From positions 54,820 through 118,819 of the forward strand of contig CAZKEF010000014.1 of the NCBI GenBank assembly GCA_964551735.1: 64,000 bases of DNA, written 5' to 3'. The position numbers were made by a program, and so were the translations under genes. The notes beneath the pieces are model-generated. The model saw only the letters and a list, made by a program, of their open reading frames with translations, did no database searches and was not told the origin of the DNA. Position 1 is the first letter of the stretch, and every line of letters begins with the position of its first letter. Positions 4,413 to 40,299 of this stretch are shown here, one piece after another. This DNA is from an uncultured Anaerolineales bacterium. Lineage in GTDB: Bacteria; Chloroflexota; Anaerolineae; CG2-30-64-16.

Positions 4413-5975
4413 TCGTATGCTCTCGCTGCTTGCAGTCATCCTGCCCTTGTCTGCGGCAGCGGCGTTGGCGCGAGCCGCGGTCACGTCCGCTGCCATCTGC
4501 TCGACCGTCTTCACGTGCAAACGCGCAGCGCCACGGTAGTCGCGCGTTCGAACTCGCGTGCCATTGCGCTCGGCCTCCGCCAGGCCCGCGGCGGCCTGGG
4601 AAATCTCGGCGGCGTATTGCGGAAGCCATTGGGCCTCTGCGACCAACATCTCATCGGTCATTTGCCAAACCTCCTCCGGGTTGCACACCGCGCCGACCAG
4701 GGGATCGTGTAACATGGCCTGCTTGAGCAGCAGCACATCACCCCGCACCGCGGCCTCCATGCCCATCTCCTGAACGCGCACGCTGGCTGCGCAGGTGGCC
4801 GCACACGCCAGAGGCAAAGCGCCCACCACCGGCATGTTGATGCCGGTCCTGTCCACATAGCCAGGAATCTCGACCACGCACCCGTCAGGCAGGTTGGTGA
4901 TGTGGCCACGGTTGATCACATTGAAATGGCCTCGGTAGATGCGACCGGTCTCCAAGGCCTCGATAATGTAGGAGCCGTGCTCCTCGCTCCGATTGGCTGG
5001 GGTGATCGCGGGCGGCTCCTCGGCCAGCCACTGTGGGAAGTCGGTCTCGAACCAGTGCCGTCCCTCGGAACACACGCGCAGATAGCCGCCGGATTCGCCA
5101 TTGATCCAACTCGAAAGATCGATCCATTGCCCGATCTCTTCCGGCCGCTTCCGGTACCACGGCAGGTATTCGCTCAAGTGGCCGTTAGATTCGGTGCTGT
5201 AGTAGCCGAAGCGTCGCAGGACGTCCACGCGCACCTTCTCGCTCTGCCGGTACTCCGGGTGGCGCCCGAAAAGCTCGGGCAGAAGCGGGATCATGTCCCG
5301 CCCGCGCCATTCCGCTTTGACGAACCAGGTCTGGTGGTTGATGCCGGCGGCGACGACGTCAACCTCGCGGCGGTGCATTTCGTAGTCCGGCGGGATGAGG
5401 CCCTGCTCCTTCGCCCACATCTCCACGCAGCGCGTGATCTGCCAATGCGCGCCCTGCACGCCGTGACACAGCCCCACCGTGGGCACGCCACCGTACCGAT
5501 TGCAGGCCCATGTGTTCATCGCCATCGGGTTCGAGTAATTCAGGAGGAGCGCTCCCGGCTTGGCAACTTCGCGCATATCCCGACAGATGTCGAGCAGCGC
5601 CGGAATGGTGCGCTGCGCATAGAACAGGCCACCAGCACAGATCGTGTCGCCGACGCATTGATCCACCCCGTACTTGAGCGGAATGTCTATGTCGAACTGG
5701 AAGGCCTCCAACCCTCCCTGGCGGATCGTGCAAATCACGTAATCGGCGTCCGCGATGGCCGAGCGGCGCTCCAGCGTGCTGATGATCGTTGCCGGCAGCC
5801 CGTTCGCTCGGATGTCACGTTCGCAAAGCTGGGTTACCATGTCCAGGTTGGCCTGGGAAATGTCCATCAGGGCAAAGGCAGTGTCGGCCAACTCCGGCAC
5901 TGCGAGGATATCACGCATCAAGCGGCGCGTGAAACCGATGGATCCTGCGCCGATCATCGCGATCTTGATGGGCAT
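4410..5975 (-). CDS. Glycoside hydrolase family 4 (NAD/Mn-dependent alpha-glucosidase/alpha-galactosidase type)
   Basis: N-terminal Rossmann motif MPIKIAMIGAGSIGF, 521 aa, and the conserved GH4 core (CHGVQG, NHQTWF). Confidence 0.8.
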   Translation of the reverse strand: MPIKIAMIGAGSIGFTRRLMRDILAVPELADTAFALMDISQANLDMVTQLCERDIRANGLPATIISTLERRSAIADADYVICTIRQGGLEAFQFDIDIPLKYGVDQCVGDTICAGGLFYAQRTIPALLDICRDMREVAKPGALLLNYSNPMAMNTWACNRYGGVPTVGLCHGVQGAHWQITRCVEMWAKEQGLIPPDYEMHRREVDVVAAGINHQTWFVKAEWRGRDMIPLLPELFGRHPEYRQSEKVRVDVLRRFGYYSTESNGHLSEYLPWYRKRPEEIGQWIDLSSWINGESGGYLRVCSEGRHWFETDFPQWLAEEPPAITPANRSEEHGSYIIEALETGRIYRGHFNVINRGHITNLPDGCVVEIPGYVDRTGINMPVVGALPLACAATCAASVRVQEMGMEAAVRGDVLLLKQAMLHDPLVGAVCNPEEVWQMTDEMLVAEAQWLPQYAAEISQAAAGLAEAERNGTRVRTRDYRGAARLHVKTVEQMAADVTAARANAAAADKGRMTASSESIR

Positions 5976-5981
5976 CTGAGT

Positions 5982-7064
5982 TTACTCCTGATATGACCCC
6001 AGCCGCTTCGCCATTTCGACAATCGCGCGAAAAGCGGCCAGGCTGACGCTGGAGGGCACCGAATGATCGGACGAGAAGATGTAGCCGCCCGATTCCTTGA
6101 GCGCCGGCACGAGGCGCTCCATCTCAGGCCGGACGAGCGCCGGATCATCCCACAGCACGGCGTTGATCCCGCCGTGCAGCACCAGATCCTTGCCGAACTC
6201 CCGCTTCAGCGCCAGCGGGTCCATCCCGGCTTTCACTTCCAGCGGATTGAGCGCATCGAGCCCCATCGAGACCAGCTCCGGGACGAACGGGCGGATGTCG
6301 CCGCACGAGTGTAGGTGCGCCTTGATCCCCTTGGCGTGCGCCCAATCAATCGCCCGCTGGTGGAACGGCTTGAGCACCTGCCGGTACTTGCGCAACGAGA
6401 AAAACTGGTGTCCCTTATAGCCCATGTCATCCCACCAGAAGACGCTGTCGAAGCGATACCCCGCGTCCCACACGCGGTCCCAGAGCGCCAGGCTGGTCTC
6501 CAGCATCGTCTCGAAAACATCCATCAGCCAGGCGGGATCTTCGACCAGGTTCATCAGCACGCGCTCCGTGCCCAGCGTCCAGGAATGGGTGACGTCGAAC
6601 CCGAACCAGAGGGCCGCCTGCAGCCAATCCCCGCGCGCCTGCCAGATCGGATAGTTCGCGGCCAGGTACGCCCAATCAATGCGATCAGGGCTGGTCGTGA
6701 TGCGCTTCTTGGCCACCTCCCAGCTCGCCCGATCCACGATGGTGAAATCGAGGAACTCCGGTGTGGAAGCCTCATGCTTCCACTCGCGCATGGTCACGCC
6801 CCAATCGCTGGTGTAGATCCTGTACTCGTCCGTTTCTTCCAGCGTCCGTTTTTCATACTGCGGCGAGCCGTCCACGAAGAGCAGGTTGACGCGGTCAATA
6901 TCGAAGTAATCCTCGAAGTCAACCCCCTCGGGCAGCCCTTCGCCGCGCCAACGCTCAATCGTGGCATGCCACGGCACGTCGGTGATGGGGACGCGGTCCG
7001 CCGCGCGGTGCTCGAACATGCGCGTGAAGCGCTCTTTGGTTGTGAGTTTGGGTTGAATCATCAT
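5982..7064 (-). CDS. URO-D-like family protein, paralog 3 (H-x-C motif present: HLHSCGD)
   Basis: 360-aa ORF, family-like throughout, with an HSC motif. Confidence 0.65.
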   Translation of the reverse strand: MMIQPKLTTKERFTRMFEHRAADRVPITDVPWHATIERWRGEGLPEGVDFEDYFDIDRVNLLFVDGSPQYEKRTLEETDEYRIYTSDWGVTMREWKHEASTPEFLDFTIVDRASWEVAKKRITTSPDRIDWAYLAANYPIWQARGDWLQAALWFGFDVTHSWTLGTERVLMNLVEDPAWLMDVFETMLETSLALWDRVWDAGYRFDSVFWWDDMGYKGHQFFSLRKYRQVLKPFHQRAIDWAHAKGIKAHLHSCGDIRPFVPELVSMGLDALNPLEVKAGMDPLALKREFGKDLVLHGGINAVLWDDPALVRPEMERLVPALKESGGYIFSSDHSVPSSVSLAAFRAIVEMAKRLGSYQE

Positions 7065-8323
7065 GACAGGCCGACCACCCGTCCCTCGCGCCGCGCCTGC
7101 TCGGCTGCAAACACCATCAGGTGCGTCTCCAGCGACTCGGCCGGGCCGGAGAGGATCAGCGACGGGTCGCCCGTGCGCAGCGCGCCGACGAAGTGCGTCA
7201 TCAGCGCCAGGTCTCCGCCGCCGTGGCCGCTCAGAATCGAGCCATCGCTGGCGGTCTCCGCGTCGATCCGTTCCGTCGTGTCGGTCATGAAGTCGTACAC
7301 CTCGATGAACCGCCCGTTGCCGTAGAGCTCCCCGCGCGTCCCGAAGATCCGCGTCTCGCGGTCGCGCTGGCGGTTGAAGGCGGTCATGGTGAAAGAGGCC
7401 GTCGCGCCGCCTTCGAACTGCATGGCGACCACCTGGTGGTCCACCACGTCGTTGTCGCAGGCGTAGACGCAGCGGCCGTACGGCCCCGTGCGCAGCGCGG
7501 CCAGCAGCCCCGCCTCGCTCACGTCCGGCGTCAGCACGTTGAGCGGCCAGCCGGTGATGCCGCGCCGCAGGCCGGTCAGGTAGATGCGCGGCGCCGAGTA
7601 GGGACAGGATGTCTCAACGGCGCAGTCCAGGCAGCGGTCGGCCGCGCCGGCGGGCCGGTTTTCGGGCCGGAAGTGCAGCAGGCTGCCGAAGGAGGAGACG
7701 AGCGTGCAGGGCCGGCCCATGATGTGCCGGAGCCAATCCAGGTCGTGGCACGATTTCGCCAGCAGCATGGAGGACGACTCGGCCTCGTTGCGCCAGTTGC
7801 CGCGCACGAAGGAGTGCGCCTGGTGCCAGAAGCCCACCGGCTCCAGGTGCTGGATGCTGGCGATCTCGCCCAGCCGGCCGGAGTCCACGATCGCCTTGAC
7901 CTTCTTGGTGTAGGCCGTGTAGCGCAGCACGTGACACACCGCGAACATGGCCCCGCTGGCCTGCGCCGCGGCGGCGATCTGCCGGCACTCGGCCGCGGTC
8001 GGCGCCATCGGCTTCTCCAGCAGGATATGGTAGCCGCGCTCCGCGAAAGCGACCGCCGGCTCGGTGTGCAGCGCATCGGGCGTGGCGATGATGACCGCAT
8101 CGGCGAAGCGGGGCTGCGCAGCGGCCTCCCGCCAGTCGGCGTAAACGTTACCGGCCGGGATGCCGTGGCGGGCAGCCAGCGCCGCGCGGTAATGCTCGCG
8201 CGGCTCGGCCACGCCCACCACCTGCGCCTGGTCGGGATGCCAGTGCGCGTACTCGGCGTAGTTGGCCCCGCGGCTGCCGGCGCCAATGATGAGCAATTTG
8301 ATCGGTGACATCAAGATACACTC
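7061..8323 (-). CDS. Gfo/Idh/MocA-family NAD(P)-dependent oxidoreductase (in-frame with upstream GT1, no intervening stop)
   Basis: The internal start MSPIKLLIIGAGSRGANYAEY is preceded by GAAGGAGTG. Gfo/Idh/MocA N-terminal Rossmann fold, and the C-terminal domain is family-like. Confidence 0.65.
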   Translation of the reverse strand, partial: ECILMSPIKLLIIGAGSRGANYAEYAHWHPDQAQVVGVAEPREHYRAALAARHGIPAGNVYADWREAAAQPRFADAVIIATPDALHTEPAVAFAERGYHILLEKPMAPTAAECRQIAAAAQASGAMFAVCHVLRYTAYTKKVKAIVDSGRLGEIASIQHLEPVGFWHQAHSFVRGNWRNEAESSSMLLAKSCHDLDWLRHIMGRPCTLVSSFGSLLHFRPENRPAGAADRCLDCAVETSCPYSAPRIYLTGLRRGITGWPLNVLTPDVSEAGLLAALRTGPYGRCVYACDNDVVDHQVVAMQFEGGATASFTMTAFNRQRDRETRIFGTRGELYGNGRFIEVYDFMTDTTERIDAETASDGSILSGHGGGDLALMTHFVGALRTGDPSLILSGPAESLETHLMVFAAEQARREGRVVGLS

Positions 8324-9598
8324 CTTCTGCAGGCTAGTTTCCACCCGCGCCACCACCGCCACGGCACGGGCGATGCCATCCTCAGCCCGAATCTTGCGCC
8401 CCAAATCGGCCGCGCGCCGGCGCATCTCCGCATCGGTCACGGCCCGGTGAATCGCGGCCGCCAGCCGCTCGGCCGTGAGCTGCTTGCGCGGGATCGGCGC
8501 CGGCCCGACCCCCAGGTCGGCCACGCGGCGGCCCCAGAACGGCTGATCCCCGAAGAAGGGCACGACGACGGACGGCACACCCGCTCGCAGCCCGGCCGCT
8601 GTGGTGCCCGCGCCGCCGTGATGCACCACGGCCGCCATGCGCGGGAAGAGCCAGGCGAAGGGCGCGGTTTCCAGCATGAAGACGGAATCCGGCAGGTCAG
8701 CCACCTGCAAGCCGCCCCAGCCGGCCAGCACCACCGCCCGCTCCCCCGTTTGCCGCAGCGCGTGCACGATCAGGCCGGCGGTTTGGGCCGGGTTGCTGAT
8801 GCTCATGCTGCCGAAGCCGATGTAGACGGGCGGCGGGCCGGACTGCAAAAACGCTGCCAGGGTCGGCGGCGGCGTCCAATCTTCCCCCGCATCCAGGAAC
8901 CAGTAGCCGGTGACGTGTACCTCTGGTCCCCCGTCGTCCGGCGGCGGGATCACGGCCGGGCTGAAGCCGTAGAGCACCGGATGCCGGCAGAAGCGCTCGC
9001 CCCGGAACGGCCCGGCCAGGGGCGACGGCGGCAGTCCCAGCACCTTCTGGCGCACCAGGCGGTCGGCGGCCCGAAACGGCTGCCACATCATCTGCCGCGC
9101 CAGGTGATAGGAAGGACGGTTGAGGGCCCCGCCCAGCCAGGACGGCAGCCCCGGCAGCAGGAAGCTGGGATAGGCGCGGGTCGGCGTGAAGGGGATGTAG
9201 TGCGCCTGGATGAACGCCAGGTCCAGCTTCTCGGCCAGCGCGTAGCCCACGAACAGCCCGCCGACGCCGGCCAGCACCGCGTCCATACCGCGGCAGGCCG
9301 CCAGCCCGCCCTCGGCCAACTCCACCGCGCCCCGCTCCGCCTCCCGCGCCATGCGCGCCAGGATGGCGGCGAAGTTGCCCCGCTCCAGCAGTGCGCTCAT
9401 CTCCTGGCCTTGGGCGACCTGCTGCGAGTCGCCCACAATCGGCCAGAACTCGACCCCGTGCGCCGCGGCCAGGCCGGCGAAGTTGCCGTGCGTCACCAGT
9501 CGCACGGCATGGCCGGCCGCAGCCAACCCCTTGCCCAGCGCCAGATACGGCTCGACGTCGCCGCGGCTGCCCGGCGCAACGATTGCGATACGCATTAT
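8324..9598 (-). CDS. GT1-family UDP-glycosyltransferase (MGT/OleD-like)
   Basis: MRIAIVAPGSRGDVEPYLALGKGLAAAGHAVRLVTH is an N-terminal GT1 motif, and the C-terminal half carries the PSPG-like UDP-sugar motif (HHGGAGTTAAGLRAGVPSVVVPFFGDQPFW). The ORF track joins it to the downstream oxidoreductase as one 907-aa ORF. Confidence 0.65.
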
Positions 9599-28923: not shown

Positions 28924-29958
28924 CTACGGCGCGACCGGCGGCGACCAGCCGCGCGTGGTCCAGGCGTGGGGGATGCCGCGGGCGTCCAGCGCGGCCTCGT
29001 AATCCTTCAAGTTAGCGGCCATCACCACATCCACCCCGGTGCGGATGATGCCATCCGTGGCGTTCATTTCAGCCAGCGCCATCGCCATCCCCTTTTCCGC
29101 CATCAGCTTGATGGTCTGCACCGACAGATAGCCCATGTCGTACTCACGCTGCGCGATGGTGGCGTCAATCACCCCTTCCTTGATGCCGTTGATGGTATCG
29201 GCGTTGGCGTCGAAGCAGACCACTTTGATCCGACCAGCGGCCCGCGCCTCCTTGATCGCCGTGGCCCAGGCCGAGCCGTTGTAGGCGTAGACGCCGAACG
29301 CGCCCGCCAGGTCCGGGTGGGCCGAGATCAGCGAGTTCGCCATCGCCAGCGCCGCGGCCGGATCCGCCTGGTCGTTCAGCGGCGGCAGGGGCACGATGCC
29401 TGTGCCGCCCACCGCATTCAGGAACCCCTCTGTGCGCTGGAGCGCGTTCAGCGCCGTGTCTGAGCCGCGCACGATGCCCACCTTACCGCCCGCGGGCAGC
29501 AGCCGGGCCAGCGTCTCGCCGGCCAGCCGGCCGGCCGCATAATTGTCGGTGCCAATGTAAACGCGGGAGACGCTACCTTCAACCGGCGGCGTGTCCAGGG
29601 TGATCACGATGATCCCGGCAGCCACAGCCTGGCGCATCAACCGCTCCAACGCCCCAGGGTCCGAGGGCGCAATCGCTATGCCGGTCACGCCTTGTGCGAT
29701 GTAGGTCTCCAGGGTCTGGATTTGAGCGGCCACATCCTCTTTGGGCGGCACAAACACGACAGTCTCCACACCCAACTCCCGCCCGGCCGCGATCACCCCC
29801 TGTTGCACGTTCGACCAGTACGGATTCACTGACTTGCCGATCACGACGACCTTGAGGGGATCTGGCGGCCCGCCGGATTGCCCCACCGGCACGCAGCCGG
29901 CCAGCGCCAACGCCACCAGCGCCACCAGAACCCTGTTGAACCACGCGTTCTTGATCAT
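28924..29958 (-). CDS. Sugar ABC transporter substrate-binding lipoprotein (CUT2/ribose-binding-like periplasmic binding protein)
   Basis: Signal peptide with lipobox LALAGC, then a type I PBP fold pattern. Confidence 0.7.
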
Positions 29959-30099
29959 GTCGCCTCCAGGCAGGAATATACCTCACAGGACCGAAATGAT
30001 GCAAGCAACCCAAGCCGGGACGATAACTTGAAGTTGCAGGGAGGACCTTGCTTGCGGTCGGCGGTCAGCGGTTAGCATTTCGGGCCGGCCCGCGCCCGA

Positions 30100-30128
30100 T
30101 TGCCTTTCACCGCTTGACCGACTATAAT
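30100..30128 (+). promoter_or_regulatory. Sigma70-like promoter: TTGCCT, 17-bp spacer, TATAAT, ending 7 nt before the response-regulator ATG (leaderless transcript likely)
   Basis: Hexamers and spacing seen directly. No SD between the -10 element and the ATG at 30136. Confidence 0.45.
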
Positions 30129-30135
30129 ATCGCTC

Positions 30136-31182
30136 ATGACAACCATCCGCGTCCTCCTGGCCGACGACCACGCGGTCGTGCGGTCGGGCATCCGCAACGC
30201 GCTGAACGACCTGCCGGGCCTGGTGGTGGTGGGCGAGGTGGGCGACGGTCGCGCGTTGGGGAGCGCCCTGGAGACGCTGCGGCCCGACCTGCTGCTGATT
30301 GACGTGACCATGCCGGATTTCGAACCGGTCGCGGCCATCCGCCAGATCCGGGCGCGCCACCCCGCGCTGAAGATCCTGATCGTCAGCGCCTACGACGATG
30401 ACGCCTACGTCCAGGGCTTGCTGGGCGTGGGGGTCAACGGCTACCACCTGAAAGATCAGCCACTCAGCGACCTGCGCCTGGCCGTGCAGCGCGTCCTGGC
30501 CGGCGAACGTTGGATCTCCAGCTCGCTCATCAGCAAGCTGCTTCACACTGCTGACGTGCCCGCGGCGGCCGCCTCGCTCACCAGCCGCCAACGCGAGCTC
30601 CTGCGCCTCCTGGTACAGGGTTATGACAATCAAAGCCTGGGCCGCGAGACCGGCCTCAGCGTCAAAACCATCGAAAACCACCTGACGCGCCTGTACCGTC
30701 AACTCAACGTGCAGAGCCGGCTGGAGGCGGTTCACTTTGCCAGCCAGCATCCTGATCTGCTGAGCCCAGTCCAGCCCGCGGCCGAAGGCAACCTAGCAGA
30801 TTTCCTGCCCCAGGGCCGGTTCACCGTGCTGCTGGTAGATGACAACCCGCGCTATCGCAGCCAGTTACAGCGCATGGTCAGCCGGACCAGCCCGCAGGCA
30901 GTGATTCACGAAGCCGGCAACACGGCCGAGGCCCTCCGGCTAGTCGAGCAGACGCAGCCCCAGCTTGTGCTGGTGGACGTGCTCCTGGGAGATGAAGACG
31001 GCATCCGCTGCGCCCGGCGCATCAAGGCGCTGCGGCCTCAAGCACGCATCATGCTGATCAGCGCGTATCCCGACCGGGAGTTCCGCCGCCTGGGCATGGA
31101 GGCTGGCGCCGCGGCTTTCCTGGACAAAAAAGACCTGGACGCGGCCACCGTGCGCCAGATGATCGAGGACATGCTGGCATGA
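30136..31182 (+). CDS. Response regulator with REC, LuxR-type HTH and a second REC domain
   Basis: REC1 has LLADDH, LLIDV and YHLK. The HTH is LTSRQRELLRLLVQGYDNQSLGRETGLSVKTIENHL. REC2 has LLVDDN, LVLVDV and FLDKK. Confidence 0.8.
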   Translation: MTTIRVLLADDHAVVRSGIRNALNDLPGLVVVGEVGDGRALGSALETLRPDLLLIDVTMPDFEPVAAIRQIRARHPALKILIVSAYDDDAYVQGLLGVGVNGYHLKDQPLSDLRLAVQRVLAGERWISSSLISKLLHTADVPAAAASLTSRQRELLRLLVQGYDNQSLGRETGLSVKTIENHLTRLYRQLNVQSRLEAVHFASQHPDLLSPVQPAAEGNLADFLPQGRFTVLLVDDNPRYRSQLQRMVSRTSPQAVIHEAGNTAEALRLVEQTQPQLVLVDVLLGDEDGIRCARRIKALRPQARIMLISAYPDREFRRLGMEAGAAAFLDKKDLDAATVRQMIEDMLA

Positions 31183-32183
31183 AACAGGTGCTTGAAACCA
31201 CCAGACCTGGCCGCACGGGGGGCGCTAAACCGGAAAGGCCCTGGAAACGCCTGGTGAGTGAGCAGCTCTTCATTTCTGTCACCCTCTGCCTGATCGTCTT
31301 CGCCTTTCTTAGCCTCAACACGGCCACCTTCCTCAGCCGCAACAACATGGCCAGCCTGGCCCGGAACTTCTCATGGTTGGCGATCGTAGCGTTCGGCCAG
31401 AGCCTGGTGATCATTATCGGTGGGATTGACCTTTCAGTGGGCGCGACCATGGCACTGGCCGGGCTGGCCGCAGCCCAGGGGATGCAATGGGGGCTGCCCA
31501 TACCGCTCGCCATCTTGCTGGGGCTGCTGGTGGGCGGCGTGATGGGCTGGATCAACGGGATGCTGATCGCGCGCATCCGCCTGCCCGCCTTCATCGCCAC
31601 CCTGGGCACCATGAGCATCGCGCGCGGCGGCGCTTTCGGTCTCACCCAGGGTTGGTCCATCACCAACCTGCCGGAGACATTCCTGCGCCTGGGCCAGGCC
31701 GATGTGACCCTGGGGCCGCTGTCCCTCTCAATGCCTTTCGTGATTGCCCTACTGATCGCGCTCCTGGTCTGGCTGTTGCTGCGCCACACCGTCCTCGGCG
31801 CCGACATCTACGCCATGAGCAGCGGCGAGCGTGCGCTCCGGGCCACGGGCGTCAATGTGGTGCGGTTGAAGGTGGTTGTCTACACCCTATGTGGGTTGCT
31901 GGCGGCCATCGGCGGGCTGCTGATCACGGCACGGCTGGGCGTAGCGGCCCCCGCCGCAGCGGTTGGCTACGAAGTGGACGTCGTCGCGGCCGCGGTCATC
32001 GGCGGCACCAGCCTCTTTGGCGGGGTCGGCAGCACCATGGGCGTGCTGTTGGGCGCAGCCATCATCCAGATGTTGAACAACGGGCTGGTGCTGCTGGGCC
32101 TCCCCACCTATTGGCAAACCGCGGCCATCGGCGCCATGATCCTGATGAGCATCCTGCTGGACTATTGGCGCAGGCGGCAATAA
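31179..32183 (+). CDS. Sugar ABC transporter permease (RbsC/branched-sugar permease family)
   Basis: Multiple TM segments and the family pattern GGIDLSVGATMALAG. ATGA overlap with the response-regulator gene. Confidence 0.8.
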   Translation: MKQVLETTRPGRTGGAKPERPWKRLVSEQLFISVTLCLIVFAFLSLNTATFLSRNNMASLARNFSWLAIVAFGQSLVIIIGGIDLSVGATMALAGLAAAQGMQWGLPIPLAILLGLLVGGVMGWINGMLIARIRLPAFIATLGTMSIARGGAFGLTQGWSITNLPETFLRLGQADVTLGPLSLSMPFVIALLIALLVWLLLRHTVLGADIYAMSSGERALRATGVNVVRLKVVVYTLCGLLAAIGGLLITARLGVAAPAAAVGYEVDVVAAAVIGGTSLFGGVGSTMGVLLGAAIIQMLNNGLVLLGLPTYWQTAAIGAMILMSILLDYWRRRQ

Positions 32184-32195
32184 GGGGCGTCACGC

Positions 32196-33785
32196 ATGGA
32201 ACCGTTGCTGCGAGCCGTCAGCCTCTCCCTCACACTAGGCACGCTGCCGGCGCTCCGCCAGGTGAGCCTGGAGATTTTCCCCGGCGAAGTCGTCGGGCTG
32301 GCGGGCCAGAGCGGCGCCGGCAAGACCGCGCTCGCCATGCTGTTAGCCGGCGCCTATACGCCCACCGCGGGCGAGCTCTACCTGGCCGGCCGGCGGCTGC
32401 GTCCCCCTTTCCGTGCACGGAGCCTGGGCATCGAGGTGATCCACCAGCAGCCCGAAATGGCCGAGGGGTTGGACATCAGCCGCAACCTCTTTTTGGGCAG
32501 CGAGCTCGGCTGGCCGAAGGGAGCCGGCCGCTGGCTCAGGGTTCTGCAGCGCCGCCGGATGGACGAAGAGGCGGCGCACATCCTGGCGCGCCTGGGCATG
32601 TCGTGCCCCTTCCTACACGAGCGGGTGGCAAACCTGTCAAGCGAGCAACGCCAGTTGATCGCCATCGCCCGCGCGCTGACGCGGCCGGCACGGCTTGTCA
32701 TCATTGATGACCCCAGCTTGCTGCTCGGTTATCCCGCCCAACAAAGACTGCTGGGGCTCATCCGCGAGTGGCAACAACAGGGCACAGCCGTGTTCTTTGC
32801 CAGCGACAATGTGGACCTGCTCATGGCCGTGACCGACCGCATCCTGGTGCTGCGCCACGGCCGCTGTGAGGTTGAATTCCGCACCGACGCGGCCACCCGT
32901 GAGAGCATTCTCAGCGCTACGGTCGGCGCAGCCGATCAGCAACAGCTCACCCCCATCATCTGGGCGCTGGACAGTTATTACCGGGCGCGCGAACAGGCCG
33001 AAAAGCTGCACCAGCGGCAGGCGTTGTTGAAGCACGAGTTGAGCGCTGACGGCGAAGTGGATCGCCAACTCATTGACCACCTGGCCGATCAGATCACCGC
33101 GCTGGATCGCGCCAACCTCGCGCTGCAAGACGCACAGCGGCGGCTGCTGACCGAGTTGGAGCAAGAGCGCAAGCAGTTAGCGCGCGAGATTCATGACCAG
33201 GTGATCCAAGATCTGCTCGGAGTCGGCTACCAACTGGAAGAGCTGGAAGCCGAGGCGGGCGCGACCCCGGTGCTGCGCGCGGAGCTGCAAACCGTGCGTG
33301 ACAGCGTGCGCGAACTGGTGGGCGACCTCCGGCACATCTGCGGCGCGCTGCGGCCGCCGACGATTGACAGCCTGGGCCTGGGCTCGGCGCTGCAATCCTA
33401 CGCGCACGAGTGGCGCAGGCGAACCGGCATCGAGCTGACCCTCAACCTGGACCCCAACCTGGGACGCCTGCCCGAAGCTACCGAGCTCTCCATCTTCCGC
33501 ATCGTGCAAGAAGGGCTCAACAACGTGCGCAAACACGCCGCCGCGACGACGGTGACGATCAGCCTGGCGCATACCTCCCCCCGGCGGCTGATGCTGACCA
33601 TCGCGGATGACGGCCGCGGGCTAGGGGCAGACTTCGACCTGGCTGACCTTTCCACCCAGGGACATTACGGTGTGTTGGGCGTCACCGAGCGGGTGGCGCT
33701 GCTGGGCGGGCAGTGGCGTATCCACAATCGCCCCGAAGGCGGGACGTTGATCCAGGTGGAGATCCCACACCCGCGCGTGAGTTAG
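32196..33785 (+). CDS. Fusion protein: ABC-type nucleotide-binding domain (degenerate motifs), coiled coil, then HisKA_3/HATPase_c sensor histidine kinase
   Basis: Walker A GQSGAGKT and Q-loop HQQ are present. The signature is LSSEQ rather than LSGGQ, Walker B is IIDDP rather than DE, and the H-loop His is missing (FASDN). The kinase half has H-box LAREIHDQ, N-box QEGLNNVRKHA, G1 ADDGRGL and G2 GVLGVTERVALLGG. Confidence 0.75.
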   Translation: MEPLLRAVSLSLTLGTLPALRQVSLEIFPGEVVGLAGQSGAGKTALAMLLAGAYTPTAGELYLAGRRLRPPFRARSLGIEVIHQQPEMAEGLDISRNLFLGSELGWPKGAGRWLRVLQRRRMDEEAAHILARLGMSCPFLHERVANLSSEQRQLIAIARALTRPARLVIIDDPSLLLGYPAQQRLLGLIREWQQQGTAVFFASDNVDLLMAVTDRILVLRHGRCEVEFRTDAATRESILSATVGAADQQQLTPIIWALDSYYRAREQAEKLHQRQALLKHELSADGEVDRQLIDHLADQITALDRANLALQDAQRRLLTELEQERKQLAREIHDQVIQDLLGVGYQLEELEAEAGATPVLRAELQTVRDSVRELVGDLRHICGALRPPTIDSLGLGSALQSYAHEWRRRTGIELTLNLDPNLGRLPEATELSIFRIVQEGLNNVRKHAAATTVTISLAHTSPRRLMLTIADDGRGLGADFDLADLSTQGHYGVLGVTERVALLGGQWRIHNRPEGGTLIQVEIPHPRVS

Positions 33786-33817: not shown

Positions 33818-34011
33818 GATACTGCTGGCGCCATTTACCTGTATCCAAACGGGGTTAGCTGTGGTATACTGGCATTTGTCGTTTATTTCACCCCAATGAC
33901 AACATCGCAGTAAGAACACATGGAGGTGCGCTGCTGACTCAAAACTGCACAGAACATTCCCCACACATTCCATTCACGCATTCCGTTCACTTACCCAAAG
34001 GGAGGATCACA

Positions 34012-36201
34012 GTGAGAACCAATCTGTCACGTTTCATCATGATCGTCGTCGCCCTGGCGATGATCGCCGCATTCCTGACTGGCTGCCCCAGCCCTGCGAC
34101 CCCAGCCCCGGCAACGACCGGCGGCCAGACCGAGGCAGGCAAGGTGCCGGTAGGCATCGTGCTGCCGACCAAGGACGAACCCCGCTGGATCCAGGACCAG
34201 ACCCGCTTCCAGGATGCACTGAAGGCCGCGGGCTACGACGTCCAGATCCTGTTCAGCCAGGGCGATTCCGCCAAAGAGAAGGCCAACGTCGAGGCGCTGA
34301 TCAGCCAGGGCATCCAGGTCTTGGTCATCTGCCCGCATGATGGCACAGCGGCGGCGGCCGCCGCGGATGCTGCCCGCGCTGCGGGCGTGAAGGTCATCTC
34401 CTACGACCGCTTGATCCGCGACACCGACGCGGTAGACTACTACGTCACCTTCGACTCGGTCGCGGTCGGCGAGGCCTGGGGCCAGTACCTGGCCGACATG
34501 GCCGGCGCCACCAAGGGCAACAACCTCTACCTCTACGCCGGCGCGGCTTCCGACAACAACGCCTTCCTCTTCTTCGAGGGTGCCTGGAACAAGCTGCAGC
34601 CCAAGATCGCCGACGGCACCTTCGTCATCAAGAACTCCAGTGAAGCCGTCGCCCTGCAAGGCAAGGCCACGCTGACCCGCGACGAGATGGCCAAGATCAT
34701 CGGCCAGGTCACCACCAACTGGGATTTCGCCGTCGCCAAGAACCTCGCCGAGGCTAACCTCACCGCGGCCAAGCCCGAGGATAAGGGTACCGTCTTCATC
34801 GCCGCGCCCAACGACGGCACCGCCCGCTCCATTGCCGATGCCTTCGCCGCCGACAAGGAAGTCACCAAGTACTACATCACCGGCCAGGACGCCGAGAAAG
34901 CCTCCGTCCAATACATCATTGACGGCAAGCAGTCCATGACCGTCCTCAAGGACGTCCGCACCCTGGTCAGCGACGCCATCACCGCGGCCGTCGCCTACCT
35001 CAAGGGCGGCACGCCTGAGAAGACCACCACCTACAACAACGGCAAGATTGACGTGCCAGCCAAACCGTCCGCCATCGTCACCGTCACCCAGGACAACGTC
35101 AAGGCCGCCATCGTTGACTCCGGCTACTACCCGGCCAGCGACTTCCCGACCCTGGGCGCGGCCGCCCCTGCCCCGACCGGCAAGGTGCCGGTAGGCATCG
35201 TGCTGCCGACCAAGGACGAACCCCGCTGGATCCAGGACCAGACCCGCTTCCAGGATGCACTGAAGGCCGCGGGCTACGACGTCCAGATCCTGTTCAGCCA
35301 GGGCGATTCCGCCAAAGAGAAGGCCAACGTCGAGGCGCTGATCAGCCAGGGCATCCAGGTCTTGGTCATCTGCCCGCATGATGGCACAGCGGCGGCGGCC
35401 GCCGCGGATGCTGCCCGCGCTGCGGGCGTGAAGGTCATCTCCTACGACCGCTTGATCCGCGACACCGACGCGGTAGACTACTACGTCACCTTCGACTCGG
35501 TCGCGGTCGGCGAGGCCTGGGGCCAGTACCTGGCCGACATGGCCGGCGCCACCAAGGGCAACAACCTCTACCTCTACGCCGGCGCGGCTTCCGACAACAA
35601 CGCCTTCCTCTTCTTCGAGGGTGCCTGGAACAAGCTGCAGCCCAAGATCGCCGACGGCACCTTCGTCATCAAGAACTCCAGTGAAGCCGTCGCCCTGCAA
35701 GGCAAGGCCACGCTGACCCGCGACGAGATGGCCAAGATCATCGGCCAGGTCACCACCAACTGGGATTTCGCCGTCGCCAAGAACCTCGCCGAGGCTAACC
35801 TCACCGCGGCCAAGCCCGAGGATAAGGGTACCGTCTTCATCGCCGCGCCCAACGACGGCACCGCCCGCTCCATTGCCGATGCCTTCGCCGCCGACAAGGA
35901 AGTCACCAAGTACTACATCACCGGCCAGGACGCCGAGAAAGCCTCCGTCCAATACATCATTGACGGCAAGCAGTCCATGACCGTCCTCAAGGACGTCCGC
36001 ACCCTGGTCAGCGACGCCATCACCGCGGCCGTCGCCTACCTCAAGGGCGGCACGCCTGAGAAGACCACCACCTACAACAACGGCAAGATTGACGTGCCAG
36101 CCAAACCGTCCGCCATCGTCACCGTCACCCAGGACAACGTCAAGGCCGCCATCGTTGACTCCGGCTACTACCCGGCCAGCGACTTCCCGACCCTGAAGTA
36201 A
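34012..36201 (+). CDS. Sugar ABC substrate-binding lipoprotein with two identical tandem SBP domains (perfect 1041-bp in-frame duplication)
   Basis: GTG start after AAGGGAGG. Signal peptide with lipobox LTGC. Residues ~44-390 and ~391-729 are identical, matching nucleotides 34138-35155 and 35179-36196. Confidence 0.7.
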   Translation: MRTNLSRFIMIVVALAMIAAFLTGCPSPATPAPATTGGQTEAGKVPVGIVLPTKDEPRWIQDQTRFQDALKAAGYDVQILFSQGDSAKEKANVEALISQGIQVLVICPHDGTAAAAAADAARAAGVKVISYDRLIRDTDAVDYYVTFDSVAVGEAWGQYLADMAGATKGNNLYLYAGAASDNNAFLFFEGAWNKLQPKIADGTFVIKNSSEAVALQGKATLTRDEMAKIIGQVTTNWDFAVAKNLAEANLTAAKPEDKGTVFIAAPNDGTARSIADAFAADKEVTKYYITGQDAEKASVQYIIDGKQSMTVLKDVRTLVSDAITAAVAYLKGGTPEKTTTYNNGKIDVPAKPSAIVTVTQDNVKAAIVDSGYYPASDFPTLGAAAPAPTGKVPVGIVLPTKDEPRWIQDQTRFQDALKAAGYDVQILFSQGDSAKEKANVEALISQGIQVLVICPHDGTAAAAAADAARAAGVKVISYDRLIRDTDAVDYYVTFDSVAVGEAWGQYLADMAGATKGNNLYLYAGAASDNNAFLFFEGAWNKLQPKIADGTFVIKNSSEAVALQGKATLTRDEMAKIIGQVTTNWDFAVAKNLAEANLTAAKPEDKGTVFIAAPNDGTARSIADAFAADKEVTKYYITGQDAEKASVQYIIDGKQSMTVLKDVRTLVSDAITAAVAYLKGGTPEKTTTYNNGKIDVPAKPSAIVTVTQDNVKAAIVDSGYYPASDFPTLK
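34138..36196 (+). repeat. Perfect tandem direct repeat, 2 x 1018 bp joined by a 23-bp linker (period 1041 bp = 347 codons)
   Basis: Identical ORF-track entries 34533-34868 and 35574-35909, and identical nucleotide lines offset by 1041 bp. Confidence 0.85.
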
Positions 36202-36300
36202 GCGCCTGTAGCCAGTTCAGCCAGGAATAGTGATGGTGATGCAAGCCATCACTATTCCTGTGTCTTCTCGCCATTTCCTACTTCACCAGGAGATCTTGCC

Positions 36301-38862
36301 ATGCCAAACCAGCCTCCCATCTTGGAGATGAAGCACATTAGCAAATCTTTCCCCGGCGTGAAAGCGTTGAACGACGTGACCTTTCAAGTCGCCGCGGGTG
36401 AGATTCACTGCCTGGTCGGCGAAAATGGCGCCGGTAAGTCTACACTCATGAAGGTGCTGAGCGGTGTCTACCCCTATGGCATGTACACGGGTGATATCCT
36501 CTTCAACGGGGAAGTGCAGAAGTTTTCCGGCATCAGCGACAGTGAGAGGGTCGGCATTGCCATCATCTATCAGGAGCTGGCGCTGGTCCCTGAGATGACG
36601 GTCTATGAGAACATCTTCCTCGGCAATGAGATCCGAAAAGGCCTGACCATTGATTGGAACGAAACCATCAAGCGGGCGACGGAAGCACTCAAAAAGGTCA
36701 GGCTTGATGTCAACCCCGAGACCAAAGTCAAACATCTGGGCGTGGGCAAGCAGCAACTAATCGAAATTGCCAAGGCGCTGAGCAAGGATGTGAAACTGCT
36801 CATCCTGGATGAGCCGACTGCGGCACTGAACGAGGATGACAGCGAGAACCTGTTGAACCTGATCCGCGAGCTCAAAGGGCACGGCGTCTCGTGCGTCATG
36901 ATTTCGCACAAACTGAAAGAGGTTATCGCCATTGCAGATACGGTCACCGTTCTACGCGATGGCCAGACCATCTGTACGCTGGATGCCCACAAGGGCGAGG
37001 TGTCGGAACATGTGTTGATCAAACACATGGTTGGCCGCGAAATCAACAACATCTATCCGACCAGGCAGCGCAATCCGTTCAAAGCCACTGGGGGCGCCGT
37101 CGAAGCGGCGAAAGCGGCCGGGGTGAAGGTCATTTCGTATGATCGCCTGATCACCAACACCAAAGTCGTGGACTATTTTGTGACCTTTGACAGCATTGCG
37201 GTCGGCGTGCAACAGGCGCGCTACCTGGTTGACCGTGCACAGGGCAAGGGCAACCCGTTGTACCTCTATGCCGGCGCCCCGTCAGACAACAACGCCTTCC
37301 TGTTCCTCCAGGGCGCGTGGGGCGTGTTGCAGCCCAAGATTGCGGATGGCACGTTCGTCATCAAGAATTCGAGCCAGGCCAGTAAGCTCCAGGCAAACGT
37401 CGCGCTGACGCGTGACCAGGCCAGCGCGATCTTCGGACAGATCACCACCAACTGGGATCGCCATACTGCCCACAACCTGGCGCAGTTCAACCTGGCCGGC
37501 GTCACGGCGGCTGATAAGGGCAACGTCTTTGTTCTTGCGCCCAACGATAACACCGCGCGGGCAATCGGCGACGTATTCGCTGCCGATCCGGACGTCAAGA
37601 GCTACGTGATCACCGGTATGGATGCCGAGGAGGCCTCCCTCCCTTACATCCTCGAAGGCAAGCAGTCCATGACCGTTTTCAAGGATGTCCGCACACTGGT
37701 GCAGGCCGCGGTTGACGCGGCGGTCGCCCTGCTTAAGGGTCAGGCGCCCGCGACCAATGGCGTCTTCAACAACGGCGCCATGGACGTCCCGGCATTGCAG
37801 TCTCCGGTCATCGCCGTGGACCAGACGAACGCGAAAGCCATGCTGGTTGACTCTGGTTATTACAAAGTCAGCGATGCGGCCGGCGCGGCCCAGAAGTCCG
37901 CTGTCGCAGGCAACGTTGCCATCGGGGTCGTCCTCCCGACCGCCGACGAGCCGCGCTGGCTCCAGGATCGGGCCCGTTTCCAGGCCGCGTTCAAAGCAGC
38001 CGGGTACAATGCCGAAATCCTGTTTAGCCAGGGCAATGCCGCCAAGGAGAAAGAGAACATCGAGACGCTGGTGGCGAAGGGTATCAAAGTCCTTATCATC
38101 TGTCCGCAGGGCGGCGGCGAAGTGGTGCTCGAGGTCAAGAACTGGAACGCCTACGACCCCGCCGTGGGCCGGGAGATCCTCAAGGATGTAAACTTCAACG
38201 TCAAGAAGGGCGAGATCGTCGGCTTTGCGGGCCTGATGGGGTCCGGCCGCACCGAGCTGGCCTTGAGCCTGTTCGGGAATCCGAAAAACTATCGGACCCG
38301 GGGCGAGATTTACATCCAGGGCACGAAGCAGCACTTCACCCATCCGCACGAGGCTATCGCCGCGGGCATCGCGTATGCGACCGAGGACCGCAAGGCGGCT
38401 GGCCTGATCCTGATCCAGGATGTGAAACAAAACACCACGTTGGCGAACTTGCAGGAGATCGCCCGGCGTGGCGTCGTGGACGGCAATGCCGAGATCAAGG
38501 TGGCGGAAGAATACCGGAGCTCCCTTAACATCAAGACGCCGTCCATCGTGCAAAAGGTGGGCAACCTGAGCGGCGGCAACCAGCAAAAGGTCCAGATTGC
38601 GAAGTGGCTGTTCGTGAAGCCCGACCTGCTCATCCTGGACGAGCCGACGCGCGGCATTGATGTCGGCGCCAAGTATGAGATTTACACCATCATGACCCGG
38701 CTGGTGGAGCAGGGCATGAGCATCATCATGATCTCGTCCGAGTTGCCCGAGGTCCTGGGCATGAGCGATCGCGTGTATATCGTCTCGGCCGGTCGGATCA
38801 CCGGCGAGCTGCCGATCGAGGAAGCGACGCAAGAGAAGATCATGCAACTGGCCACAAGTTAA
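36301..38862 (+). CDS. CUT2-type sugar ABC ATPase (two NBDs, RbsA/XylG-like) with a ~340-aa circularly permuted SBP-like domain inserted between NBD1 and NBD2
   Basis: NBD1 (aa 1-261) and NBD2 (aa ~593-853) are complete: Walker A GENGAGKST and GLMGSGRTEL, signatures LGVGKQQ and LSGGNQQ, Walker B LILDEPT twice. The segment between them (GVKVISYDRLITNTKVVDYFVTFD ... KVLIICPQGG) is ~70% identical to the upstream SBP and is ordered C-half then N-half. Confidence 0.7.
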   Translation: MPNQPPILEMKHISKSFPGVKALNDVTFQVAAGEIHCLVGENGAGKSTLMKVLSGVYPYGMYTGDILFNGEVQKFSGISDSERVGIAIIYQELALVPEMTVYENIFLGNEIRKGLTIDWNETIKRATEALKKVRLDVNPETKVKHLGVGKQQLIEIAKALSKDVKLLILDEPTAALNEDDSENLLNLIRELKGHGVSCVMISHKLKEVIAIADTVTVLRDGQTICTLDAHKGEVSEHVLIKHMVGREINNIYPTRQRNPFKATGGAVEAAKAAGVKVISYDRLITNTKVVDYFVTFDSIAVGVQQARYLVDRAQGKGNPLYLYAGAPSDNNAFLFLQGAWGVLQPKIADGTFVIKNSSQASKLQANVALTRDQASAIFGQITTNWDRHTAHNLAQFNLAGVTAADKGNVFVLAPNDNTARAIGDVFAADPDVKSYVITGMDAEEASLPYILEGKQSMTVFKDVRTLVQAAVDAAVALLKGQAPATNGVFNNGAMDVPALQSPVIAVDQTNAKAMLVDSGYYKVSDAAGAAQKSAVAGNVAIGVVLPTADEPRWLQDRARFQAAFKAAGYNAEILFSQGNAAKEKENIETLVAKGIKVLIICPQGGGEVVLEVKNWNAYDPAVGREILKDVNFNVKKGEIVGFAGLMGSGRTELALSLFGNPKNYRTRGEIYIQGTKQHFTHPHEAIAAGIAYATEDRKAAGLILIQDVKQNTTLANLQEIARRGVVDGNAEIKVAEEYRSSLNIKTPSIVQKVGNLSGGNQQKVQIAKWLFVKPDLLILDEPTRGIDVGAKYEIYTIMTRLVEQGMSIIMISSELPEVLGMSDRVYIVSAGRITGELPIEEATQEKIMQLATS

Positions 38863-38934
38863 GCAGGAACAAGCTCACAGCGGGTGGCGCGATTATCGGC
38901 CCCCGGCAGAATTCATGTTACCAGGAGGATTCCG

Positions 38935-40170
38935 ATGAGTTCACAGCAAGCTAGTCCGGCCCAGGCCAAGGGCGGCACGGCTCAAATGTCGTTCATGCAG
39001 AACCTGCAGAAAATGATCCAGTCGAACATCCGCGACTACGGCATGTATATCGCCCTGGTCGTGATCATGTTGTTCTTCACCTGGCGGACGGACGGCCTGT
39101 TCCTTACGTCGCGGAACATCTCTAACCTGCTGGATCAGACAGGTTACATCGCCGTCATCGCGGTCGGCATGACGCTGGTCATCGTCATCCGGCACATTGA
39201 CCTGTCGGTCGGCTTTCTTTCCGGATTCCTCGCCGCAATAGCGGCTATCCTCATGAAATCCTTTGGCGTGCCCGCCTTTCTCGTCATCCCGCTGGCGTTG
39301 GCGCTCGGCATCGCGGCAGGCGCCTTAACTGCCTTCATGGTGGCGCAACTGGGCATCCCGGCCTTTGTCGCAACCCTGGGCGGGTGGCTGGTCTACCGCG
39401 GGCTCCTGCTGCTCGTCCTGGCGGGCACGGGCACGATCATCATTGACAGTAAGTTCTTCAACGACATCGGTAATGGCTACATTCCCGATATTCCCGGCCT
39501 CAATTTCCTGCCGGAAGTGCATAAGCTGACGCTGATCCTCGGGTTGCTGGCCATCGTCCTGTTCATCTTCAGCCAGATCAACAGCCGCCGCCAGAAGGCC
39601 GCGTACAACTTCGAAGTGCTGCCGATGAACCTGTTCATCCTGAAGCTGGTCTTCCTGGCGGCCGTGCTCGGCGCTGTGACCTGGATCCTGGCGGGCTACA
39701 ACGGCCTCTCCTGGACGGTTGTGATTATGTTGATCGTAGTCGGCATCTATCACTTCATCACCACACAGACCGTGCTGGGCCGGCACATCTATGCGATCGG
39801 CGGCAACCCCGAGGCGGCCCAGTTGAGCGGCATCAACGTTAGGAAGATGACCTACCTGGTTTTCGCCTCGATGGGCATGCTGGCTGCCTTGGGCGGGATC
39901 ATGTTCGCCTCCCGCCTGCGCTCCGCCACGCCGCAAGCCGGCACCCTGTTGGAATTGGATGCCATCGCGGCCGCCTTCATCGGCGGTGCATCCCCTGCCG
40001 GCGGCATCGGCACGATCTTGGGCTCGCTGATCGGCGCGCTGGTCTACATGTCGCTGACCAACGGCATGAACCTGATGGGCACGGATATCGCCCTCCAGTA
40101 CGTCGTCCGCGGCTTGGTGCTGGTGCTGGCGGTAATCTTCGATGTGACGACGCGGCGCGGCAGCAGGTAG
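38935..40170 (+). CDS. Sugar ABC transporter permease (RbsC/XylH/MglC family)
   Basis: AGGAGG SD before the ATG. Ten predicted TM segments and the family pattern. Confidence 0.8.
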   Translation: MSSQQASPAQAKGGTAQMSFMQNLQKMIQSNIRDYGMYIALVVIMLFFTWRTDGLFLTSRNISNLLDQTGYIAVIAVGMTLVIVIRHIDLSVGFLSGFLAAIAAILMKSFGVPAFLVIPLALALGIAAGALTAFMVAQLGIPAFVATLGGWLVYRGLLLLVLAGTGTIIIDSKFFNDIGNGYIPDIPGLNFLPEVHKLTLILGLLAIVLFIFSQINSRRQKAAYNFEVLPMNLFILKLVFLAAVLGAVTWILAGYNGLSWTVVIMLIVVGIYHFITTQTVLGRHIYAIGGNPEAAQLSGINVRKMTYLVFASMGMLAALGGIMFASRLRSATPQAGTLLELDAIAAAFIGGASPAGGIGTILGSLIGALVYMSLTNGMNLMGTDIALQYVVRGLVLVLAVIFDVTTRRGSR

Positions 40171-40299
40171 GCATTCACACCATCGGATAAACCAAGCGAG
40201 GCGGTCTTATCGGCCGCCTCGCTGCGCGTAACGAGGCATCGCCACATAGGTGGATTCAGACCAGTGTCCATGTCGCGGGCGACACAAGCGGAGATGAAA

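Follow-up and report, generated by a model that had tools for sequence, protein, structure and literature searches.

Identical tandem ChvE-type domains and a permuted binding domain inside the adjacent GguA-type ATPase at an importer locus of an uncultured Anaerolineales bacterium

INTRODUCTION

Repeats kept alike by gene conversion, a pattern known as concerted evolution, are exemplified by ribosomal RNA (rRNA) operons and by the tuf genes of enterobacteria. This work describes a locus in which a comparable process appears to act between two domains of one open reading frame (ORF). In a 64,000-bp stretch of contig CAZKEF010000014.1 (referred to here as the window), from an uncultured Anaerolineales bacterium (Chloroflexota), the binding-protein gene of a predicted sugar importer encodes two identical full-length domains, and a diverged, circularly permuted copy of the same domain lies within the ATPase encoded by the next gene. 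Three bodies of earlier work bear on this arrangement. Amino acid importers of the GlnPQ type carry tandem substrate-binding domains (PMC8025302; Fulyani et al. 2013, cited in PMC4245157). Duplication is a described route to circular permutation (PMC3320104), and trans-inhibition domains are found on the ATPases of importers of the ATP-binding cassette (ABC) type, namely, the C2 domain of MetN and the regulatory domains of ModC and MalK (PMC4245157).

The locus has the gene order of the ChvE-GguA-GguB importer (CUT2 family), and ChvE, GguA, and GguB are the best NCBIfam matches of its products. Unlike in that importer, the binding protein is doubled in one lipid-anchored polypeptide, a binding-protein domain of 345 amino acids (aa) splits the ATPase, and the GguA and GguB matches fall below their curated cut-offs. 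For the doubled binding protein, the tandem domains of GlnPQ are the nearest known analogue: both have two extracytoplasmic binding domains per polypeptide, a short linker, and a membrane tether, and both occur in organisms without a periplasm. However, the GlnPQ domains belong to class II/type F, are covalently joined to the permease, and are unlike each other in specificity and affinity (PMC8025302), whereas those of the window are type I sugar-binding domains, apparently identical through gene conversion, on a separate lipoprotein. The fusion to a transmembrane domain that marks GlnPQ is absent, as the binding-protein gene ends at 36201 and the permease is encoded separately at 38884-40170. 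That the domains are identical, in contrast to the differing domains of GlnPQ, points to dosage rather than to a broader substrate range.

RESULTS AND DISCUSSION

A binding-protein gene with two identical domains

The gene and the parts of its predicted product are as follows.

34012..36201, + strand: gene for a 729-aa ChvE/XylF-type sugar-binding lipoprotein with two tandem domains (from the ORF and from Pfam, NCBIfam, and PDB matches)
34012..34086, + strand: signal peptide carrying the lipobox LTGC (Cys25); a tether rich in Pro, Ala, and Thr comes next and extends to 34137 (from the translation)
34138..35154, + strand: binding-domain copy 1, 339 codons (exact identity at a period of 1041)
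35155..35178, + strand: interdomain linker GAAAPAPT, with no match to either flank of the repeat (linkers of related loci L081 to L086 are similar; related locus L087 shares 20 of the 24 bases)
35179..36195, + strand: binding-domain copy 2, 100% identical to copy 1 (exact identity at a period of 1041)

Exact identity runs for 1017 bp, with 34138-35154 equal to 35179-36195, and the period is 1041 bp (347 codons). This bears out the in-frame exact repeat with a 347-codon period that had been reported in an initial annotation made from the letters of the window. The span given there (34138-35155 and 35179-36196, 1018 bp) describes a real repeat but is one base too long, since 35155 is G and 36196 is A; likewise, the linker was correctly translated as GAAAPAPT but measures 24 bp rather than 23. 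The same annotation's description of a perfect 1041-bp duplication does not hold. Instead of a pristine unit duplicated whole, the repeat comprises two identical 339-codon cores plus a linker of its own (35155-35178, GGCGCGGCCGCCCCTGCCCCGACC), whose 24 bp resemble neither the 24 bp preceding copy 1 nor the 24 bp following copy 2. All 978 of the 978 repeated 40-mers in the window lie at an offset of 1041 and none is inverted, which excludes chance, and no other long repeat is present in the window.

The ORF starts with GTG, and the GGGAGG located 6 nt upstream is its ribosome-binding site. Its leader (...AAFLTGC) conforms to the lipobox pattern [LVI][ASTVI][GAS]C with the cysteine at residue 25, and homologues have the same layout, with LTAC, LSAC, LAAC, or FGC at the lipobox position; on this motif, the protein is predicted to be lipidated. 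Pfam Peripla_BP_4 (PF13407) matches in two stretches (E = 2e-89, 299.9 bits, gathering cut-off 35.1), the better of which covers profile positions 1-257 of 258, as expected for a type I periplasmic binding protein fold. The view of the initial annotation that the product is a single lipoprotein with two complete type I binding-protein domains is thereby supported by the ORF, the LTGC motif, and the two Peripla_BP_4 matches. The best NCBIfam family is ChvE (NF040907), at 499.4 bits against a cut-off of 460, but this score is summed over the two domains, and one domain alone would fall short of the cut-off. A single domain matches PDB entry 4RXU (Chloroflexus aurantiacus Caur_1924) at E = 4e-169; this nearest solved relative was reportedly crystallized with glucose. 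The tandem protein is best described as a putative lipid-anchored ChvE-type monosaccharide-binding protein, with sugar binding predicted for either domain. Two equivalent sugar-binding domains on one lipid anchor would be offered to the GguB-type permease, and the doubling may provide a higher local dose of receptor in a cell without a periplasm.

On the opposite strand, an antisense ORF of 641 aa (34027-35952) spans both copies of the repeat, and a 111-aa antisense ORF is itself duplicated (34533-34868 and 35574-35909). These are most likely the usual stop-codon-poor antisense frame of coding DNA with high G+C content, with no gene present.

Evidence for concerted evolution of the two copies

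Relatives were taken from a search over 5.8 billion proteins, of which the best 120 homologues listed (73 to 89% identity) were retained; they derive from NCBI, JGI, ENA, and Logan assemblies. Those with names are labeled Anaerolineales, Thermoflexales, or Caldilineales, and further relatives are labeled Chloroflexi. The exact protein of the window occurs in the NCBI portion of the collection, where one 144,319-bp contig also carries the ATPase. Two domains were counted in 116 of the 120 and three in the remaining 4, giving 117 and 4 among 121 proteins when that of the window is included. The interdomain linkers of five related loci were read and are recognizably similar and Ala/Pro-rich, examples being ...GLEGGAAAPA..., GIEGGAAIP, GLDEAGAAPAITGK, and GLDAAAAPAPAAAKGT, to be compared with GAAAPAPT in the window. 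A collinear relative is L087, an ENA contig reached through the representative of the 90% cluster of the window protein and probably a long-read assembly, as judged from its contig naming and frameshifted genes. It is collinear with 34001-40171 of the window at 86 to 91% nucleotide identity, and its binding-protein gene also has two copies (period 1042, copy-copy identity 986/1018, or 96.9%) joined by a linker with 20 of 24 bases as in the window. The comparison with orthologous loci that the initial annotation had recommended returns two copies and a matching linker, in a relative rather than in the same organism.

Three-domain binding proteins of 1006 to 1080 aa were observed in P0121, P0122, P0123, and P0125, and in L085 at 5001-8222, a contig whose name likewise suggests a long-read assembly. 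In the L085 gene, nucleotide identity is 100% between two of the copies and 98% for the third, and both linkers are identical, a pattern consistent with unequal crossing-over.

Within a protein, the first and second domains have a median amino acid identity of 97.8%; across the 121 proteins they are 100% identical in 20 and at least 95% identical in 89, and among relatives the identity spans 77% to 100%. First domains compared between proteins, by contrast with the pairs within proteins, have a median identity of 81.4%. The same relation holds at the nucleotide level, with identities of 87 to 100% within a gene versus 72 to 84% between genomes, and at third codon positions (78 to 100% versus 48 to 72%). 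Since third-position identity is high within genes and low between genomes, selection on the protein is not the source of the similarity between the copies. In a neighbor-joining tree, both domains of one protein formed an exclusive clade in 47 of 64 proteins. In a nearest-neighbor comparison on the same alignment, most of those domains that were closest to a domain of another protein came from near-identical strain pairs in which first domain matched first and second matched second. In one such pair from different sources (P0143 and P0144), the first domains are 100% identical, as are the second domains, and the first and second domains share 89.5% identity. Such pairs indicate that real position-specific differences recur between independent assemblies.

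The distribution of differences along the gene points in the same direction. In L084, the copies agree at every position of a tract of about 250 nt, flanked by sequence with 10 to 18 differences per 50 nt, and in L081, L082, and L085 the few copy-copy differences lie mostly at domain edges. Both signatures of gene conversion were found, namely, similarity that is greater within than between genomes, synonymous sites included, and a homologous junction together with mosaic tracts. The excess of within-genome similarity, the mosaic tracts, and the residual differences at repeat edges are shared with rRNA operons and tuf genes; unlike in those systems, the repeats here are two whole domains in one ORF, homogenized across the sampled Anaerolineae-type lineages. 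No second chvE-gguAB operon that could act as a conversion donor occurs within the window. As judged from these sequence comparisons, the duplication is old and its copies owe their identity to concerted evolution through intragenic gene conversion; this would represent sustained concerted evolution between whole domains within one reading frame. The initial annotation had offered either a very recent duplication or an assembly artifact; neither is supported, given that the 120 listed homologues are all multidomain, that the linkers read are similar, and that copies within a gene are nearly always closer to each other than to orthologues, synonymous sites included.

A single-domain gene next to a plain ATPase is found in the Chloroflexales genome L001 and in L002, and 4RXU is also single-domain, which looks like the ancestral state. 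The L002 locus (6988-9595) lies on a contig binned as Spirochaetaceae (56% G+C); its chvE domain is 77% identical in amino acids to that of the window and its gguA, which has no insert, is 66 to 71% identical. Horizontal transfer from Chloroflexota would account for it, as would an error in binning. In L086 (7396-8199 of a 1.76-Mb contig), the tandem binding-protein gene is followed by a 267-aa ATPase gene with one nucleotide-binding domain, which could be a frameshift error or a real truncation.

A permuted binding domain within the ATPase

The repeat search also returned a third, partial copy at 37245-37458, within the ATPase gene, with 74% nucleotide identity to 34512-34725. The features of this gene are listed below.

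36301..38862, + strand: GguA-type ABC ATPase of 853 aa, with two nucleotide-binding domains and an inserted binding-protein domain (Pfam, NCBIfam, and alignment)
37075..38109, + strand: one circularly permuted period of the tandem binding protein, inserted in frame; residues ~259-603, about 345 aa (boundaries relative to the L082 to L084 orthologues)
37084..37863, + strand: insert part A (residues 262-521), corresponding to binding-domain residues ~71-336, from helix 3 to the C-terminal DSGYY (tblastn and motif extraction)
37864..37920, + strand: relic tail and linker within the insert (KVSDAAGAAQKSAVAGNVA), 19 aa, its least conserved and least confidently modeled part
37921..38109, + strand: insert part B (residues 541-603), corresponding to binding-domain residues ~5-67, from IGVVLPT to ICPQ (tblastn and motif extraction)

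The orthologues encoded downstream of the tandem genes in L082 to L084 have no insert and measure 507 to 529 aa, versus 853 aa in the window. Alignment with them shows one clean insertion in the linker between the nucleotide-binding domains, ...YPTRQRNP[FKATGG...ICPQ]GGGEVVLEV..., and the nucleotide-binding parts on either side are 73 to 82% identical to these orthologues. Pfam assigns two ABC_tran domains plus Peripla_BP_4 and Peripla_BP_1, with the order of the binding-protein profile swapped, such that positions 67-257 precede positions 3-66. NCBIfam places GguA at residues 7-258 and ChvE positions 70-322 at residues 265-524; GguA (NF040905) is the best family, at 745.9 bits against a cut-off of 810, the profile being broken after position 252 by the insert.

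The properties of a circular permutant are present: swapped parts, a length of about 345 aa compared with the 347-codon period, and a junction with a relic of the form xASDFTG.... Other inserts retain KASDFTG... at this place (compare PASDFTGLEGGAAAPA in the tandem protein), and the insert of P0010 reads DSGYY-KASDFTGASNASTPSASLA-VGIVLPT where the tandem protein of L081 reads DSGYY-PASDFTGLEGGAAAPAAGKLA-VGIVLPT. An insert one period long that runs from mid-domain to mid-domain is what would be expected from copying one out-of-register period of the tandem gene. As in permutation by duplication, the order is second part, linker, first part, over exactly one period, as if excised out of register; unlike in the described route, the tandem intermediate persists in a functional form in the adjacent gene, and the unit was inserted elsewhere rather than trimmed in place. 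With the tandem intermediate preserved beside the permuted product, the permutation-by-duplication route becomes directly testable.

Insert-bearing ATPases make up at least 120 clusters at 90% identity (805 to 870 aa, most of them 844 to 861 aa; 74 to 100% identity), and the inserts form one clade in a neighbor-joining tree. Among 1.84 billion representatives at 50% identity, one protein only has the full architecture; the insert family is compact. In an AlphaFold2 model of the ATPase built with 47 homologues (mean predicted local distance difference test [pLDDT] score, 79), the block means of the insert are mostly 80 to 96, with lower values around residues 380-400 and toward its edges; disorder is predicted for the relic linker (pLDDT <50 at residues 523-536). 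The best solved-structure match of the model is 4RXU, with a template modeling score of 0.74 normalized to the target, and the structure search found no PDB entry combining ABC ATPase and binding-protein folds. Full-text literature searches, in an incomplete library where the lack of a hit is weak evidence, gave nothing relevant on ABC ATPases that contain a binding-protein domain, on circular permutation of binding proteins, or on concerted evolution of tandem binding domains. The insert-bearing ATPase is a new variant of ABC-importer architecture.

Genome contigs were also scanned with patterns back-translated from the ATPase alignment. The patterns proved to be of a generic Walker type, and 78 of 80 loci were ordinary sugar ATPases from other phyla; only L001, L002, and L028 were useful, as outgroups. 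Scan matches of about 2.6 kb that had the appearance of ATPase insertions were rejected, as they consist of a binding-protein gene plus a plain ATPase.

Proposed history and alternative explanations

The locus as a whole is likely explained by an old tandem gene that is homogenized by gene conversion and that was the source of the permuted insert in the ATPase. The two-domain form would have arisen once, long ago, in Anaerolineae-side Chloroflexota and been kept since. Its 1-kb domain repeats would recombine, with nonreciprocal gene conversion repeatedly overwriting one copy with the other and unequal crossing-over probably yielding the three-domain forms; in the window, the latest conversion would have spanned the whole 1017-bp core and left identical copies. 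The tandem gene would also have supplied the one-period, mid-domain-to-mid-domain segment that now lies in frame inside the neighboring GguA-type ATPase.

Other origins of the exact repeat were weighed against this history. That the gene is truly tandem but was smoothed or miscounted in assembly, with a few true differences between the copies (3% in L087) or with three copies present, is improbable. Such an error is conceivable because a 1017-bp exact repeat exceeds short-read length, and the copies of relatives range down to 77% amino acid identity and three-domain forms exist. However, domains that are 100% identical also occur in 19 of the 120 homologues, which come from different sources, and where the domains of other homologues differ, the differences recur exactly between independent assemblies. 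The junction sequence needs at least two copies, and L087 and L085, both with contig names that suggest long-read assemblies, show copy identities of 97% and 98 to 100%, respectively. A two-copy artifact of a single-copy gene was considered separately and rejected, being contradicted by the junction sequence and by listed homologues that are all multidomain. A very recent de novo tandem duplication confined to this lineage would readily give 100% nucleotide identity, yet we regard it as very improbable: a fresh junction would consist of the unit's own ends, whereas the 24-bp Ala/Pro linker has no match in either flank and is similar to linkers found in relatives that are only 72 to 84% identical in nucleotides. 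Moreover, all 120 of the listed homologues are multidomain, and the permuted copy in the ATPase, at 62 to 64% amino acid identity to the domain, indicates that a tandem form is of long standing. That the gene is an engineered or chimeric construct can hardly be credited. The linker does include GCGGCCGC, a NotI site that encodes Ala-Ala-Ala between the copies, but the window (65% G+C) contains 29 NotI sites, the matching linker of L087 has none, and the same architecture recurs in metagenomes of soil, sediment, and reactors that were drawn from several data sources. In binding-protein genes of this kind, identical intragenic repeats of 1 kb should be seen as expected biology rather than as errors, and the copy number, two or three, merits long-read confirmation.

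For the role of the insert, two readings were compared. The ATPase has no signal sequence, which places the insert in the cytoplasm, where it is best interpreted as a built-in sugar sensor. Most likely, it would sense internal sugar and hinder closure of the nucleotide-binding domains in a manner resembling trans-inhibition. The fuller proposal is one we hold tentatively: that in this GguA clade a complete, permuted, still sugar-binding Venus-flytrap domain, derived from the adjacent tandem gene, serves as a cytoplasmic gauge that throttles the importer, with three stages of the permutation surviving in related genomes. That the insert is instead a tolerated passenger, structurally neutral and without ligand-dependent function, seems rather unlikely to us. 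It could be accommodated passively, the ends of a permuted domain being adjacent in one lobe; orthologues without it, up to 93% identical in the nucleotide-binding domains, presumably work; and several otherwise universal positions are less constrained in inserts (retention is 73% for Q250, 70% for Y102, and 56% for N140). On the other hand, column conservation is as high in the insert (0.85 to 0.87) as in the nucleotide-binding domains (0.87), with the relic linker free to vary (0.51), and no frameshifted or decayed inserts were found among the 120 clusters. Of the 157 residues that are near-invariant in binding proteins, 119 are retained in at least 90% of inserts, including 37 that are shared even with ChvE homologues of only 35% identity; examples, in domain numbering, are W17, Y89-D90-R91, D139, N141, W195, D226, D251, Q265, and K271-D272.

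Like the regulatory domains of MetN, ModC, and MalK, the predicted sensor is an extra cytoplasmic ATPase domain related to, or able to bind, substrate, and it could block closure when internal substrate is high. In contrast to those small C-terminal appendages of other folds, it is a complete Venus-flytrap domain placed between the nucleotide-binding domains; the likeness would be functional only, the domains being structurally unrelated, and the case for trans-inhibition is indirect, from the conservation of residues typical of binding proteins and from purifying selection. A binding-protein domain in the ATPase subunit suggests an undescribed coupling of internal sugar level to import. If true, this would be a new structural solution to trans-inhibition, as well as a rare natural case in which a single domain, its tandem duplicate, and an inserted permuted unit survive in related genomes, and the insert-less orthologues, up to 93% identical, would serve as natural controls.

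Several points count against the history and the sensor role proposed here. The trees are neighbor-joining trees without bootstrap support, and the list of relatives comprises the 120 best hits obtained with a query whose own two domains are identical. For the window, both the exact identity and the count of two copies depend on the assembler; assembly from short reads can pop bubbles where repeats are nearly identical and can guess the multiplicity of a loop. Sugar binding by either tandem domain, docking of both on the permease, and ligand binding by the ATPase insert are predictions, and the insert of the window changes two otherwise universal residues (Q250 to M and Y102 to F). Finally, the distribution of the insert is patchy: on a neighbor-joining tree of the nucleotide-binding-domain columns it needs about 9 state changes, which a single simple insertion event fails to explain. 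For example, P0050, with the insert, and P0422, without it, are 93% identical in these columns. Repeated loss, transfer of a cassette by homologous recombination, or paralogue conversion could produce this pattern.

Operon and genomic neighborhood

The operon runs in the order binding protein, GguA-type ATPase, and GguB-type permease. The remaining features in and around it are as follows.

36222..36260, + strand: hairpin (16-bp stem) that separates the binding-protein gene from that of the ATPase (terminator-like scan and RNA fold)
38884..40170, + strand: GguB-type permease (Pfam BPD_transp_2; NCBIfam GguB at residues 48-425); the true start may be downstream of GTG 38884
28924-29958, - strand: lipoprotein-like Peripla_BP_4 binding protein (upstream module)
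30136-31182: response regulator with the domain order REC-GerE-REC (upstream module)
31179-32183: BPD_transp_2 permease (upstream module)
32196-33785: ABC nucleotide-binding domain fused to HisKA_3 and HATPase_c, that is, a histidine kinase (upstream module)

The permease scores 416.1 bits with NCBIfam GguB (NF040906), below the cut-off of 450, over profile positions 1-374 of 375, and is a close GguB relative just under the cut-off. The hairpin has a predicted folding energy of -37.5 kcal/mol (z = -4.3 versus shuffles), and part of it is conserved in L087; its probable role is that of a partial terminator or an mRNA stabilizer, which would favor an excess of binding protein. Rfam and tRNA scans found no RNA genes in the window. 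Upstream of the operon, the four genes at 28924-33785 form a conserved module, which also accompanies the tandem operon in L082, L083, L084, L085, and L087 and which looks like an ABC-importer-shaped sugar sensor wired to a histidine kinase.

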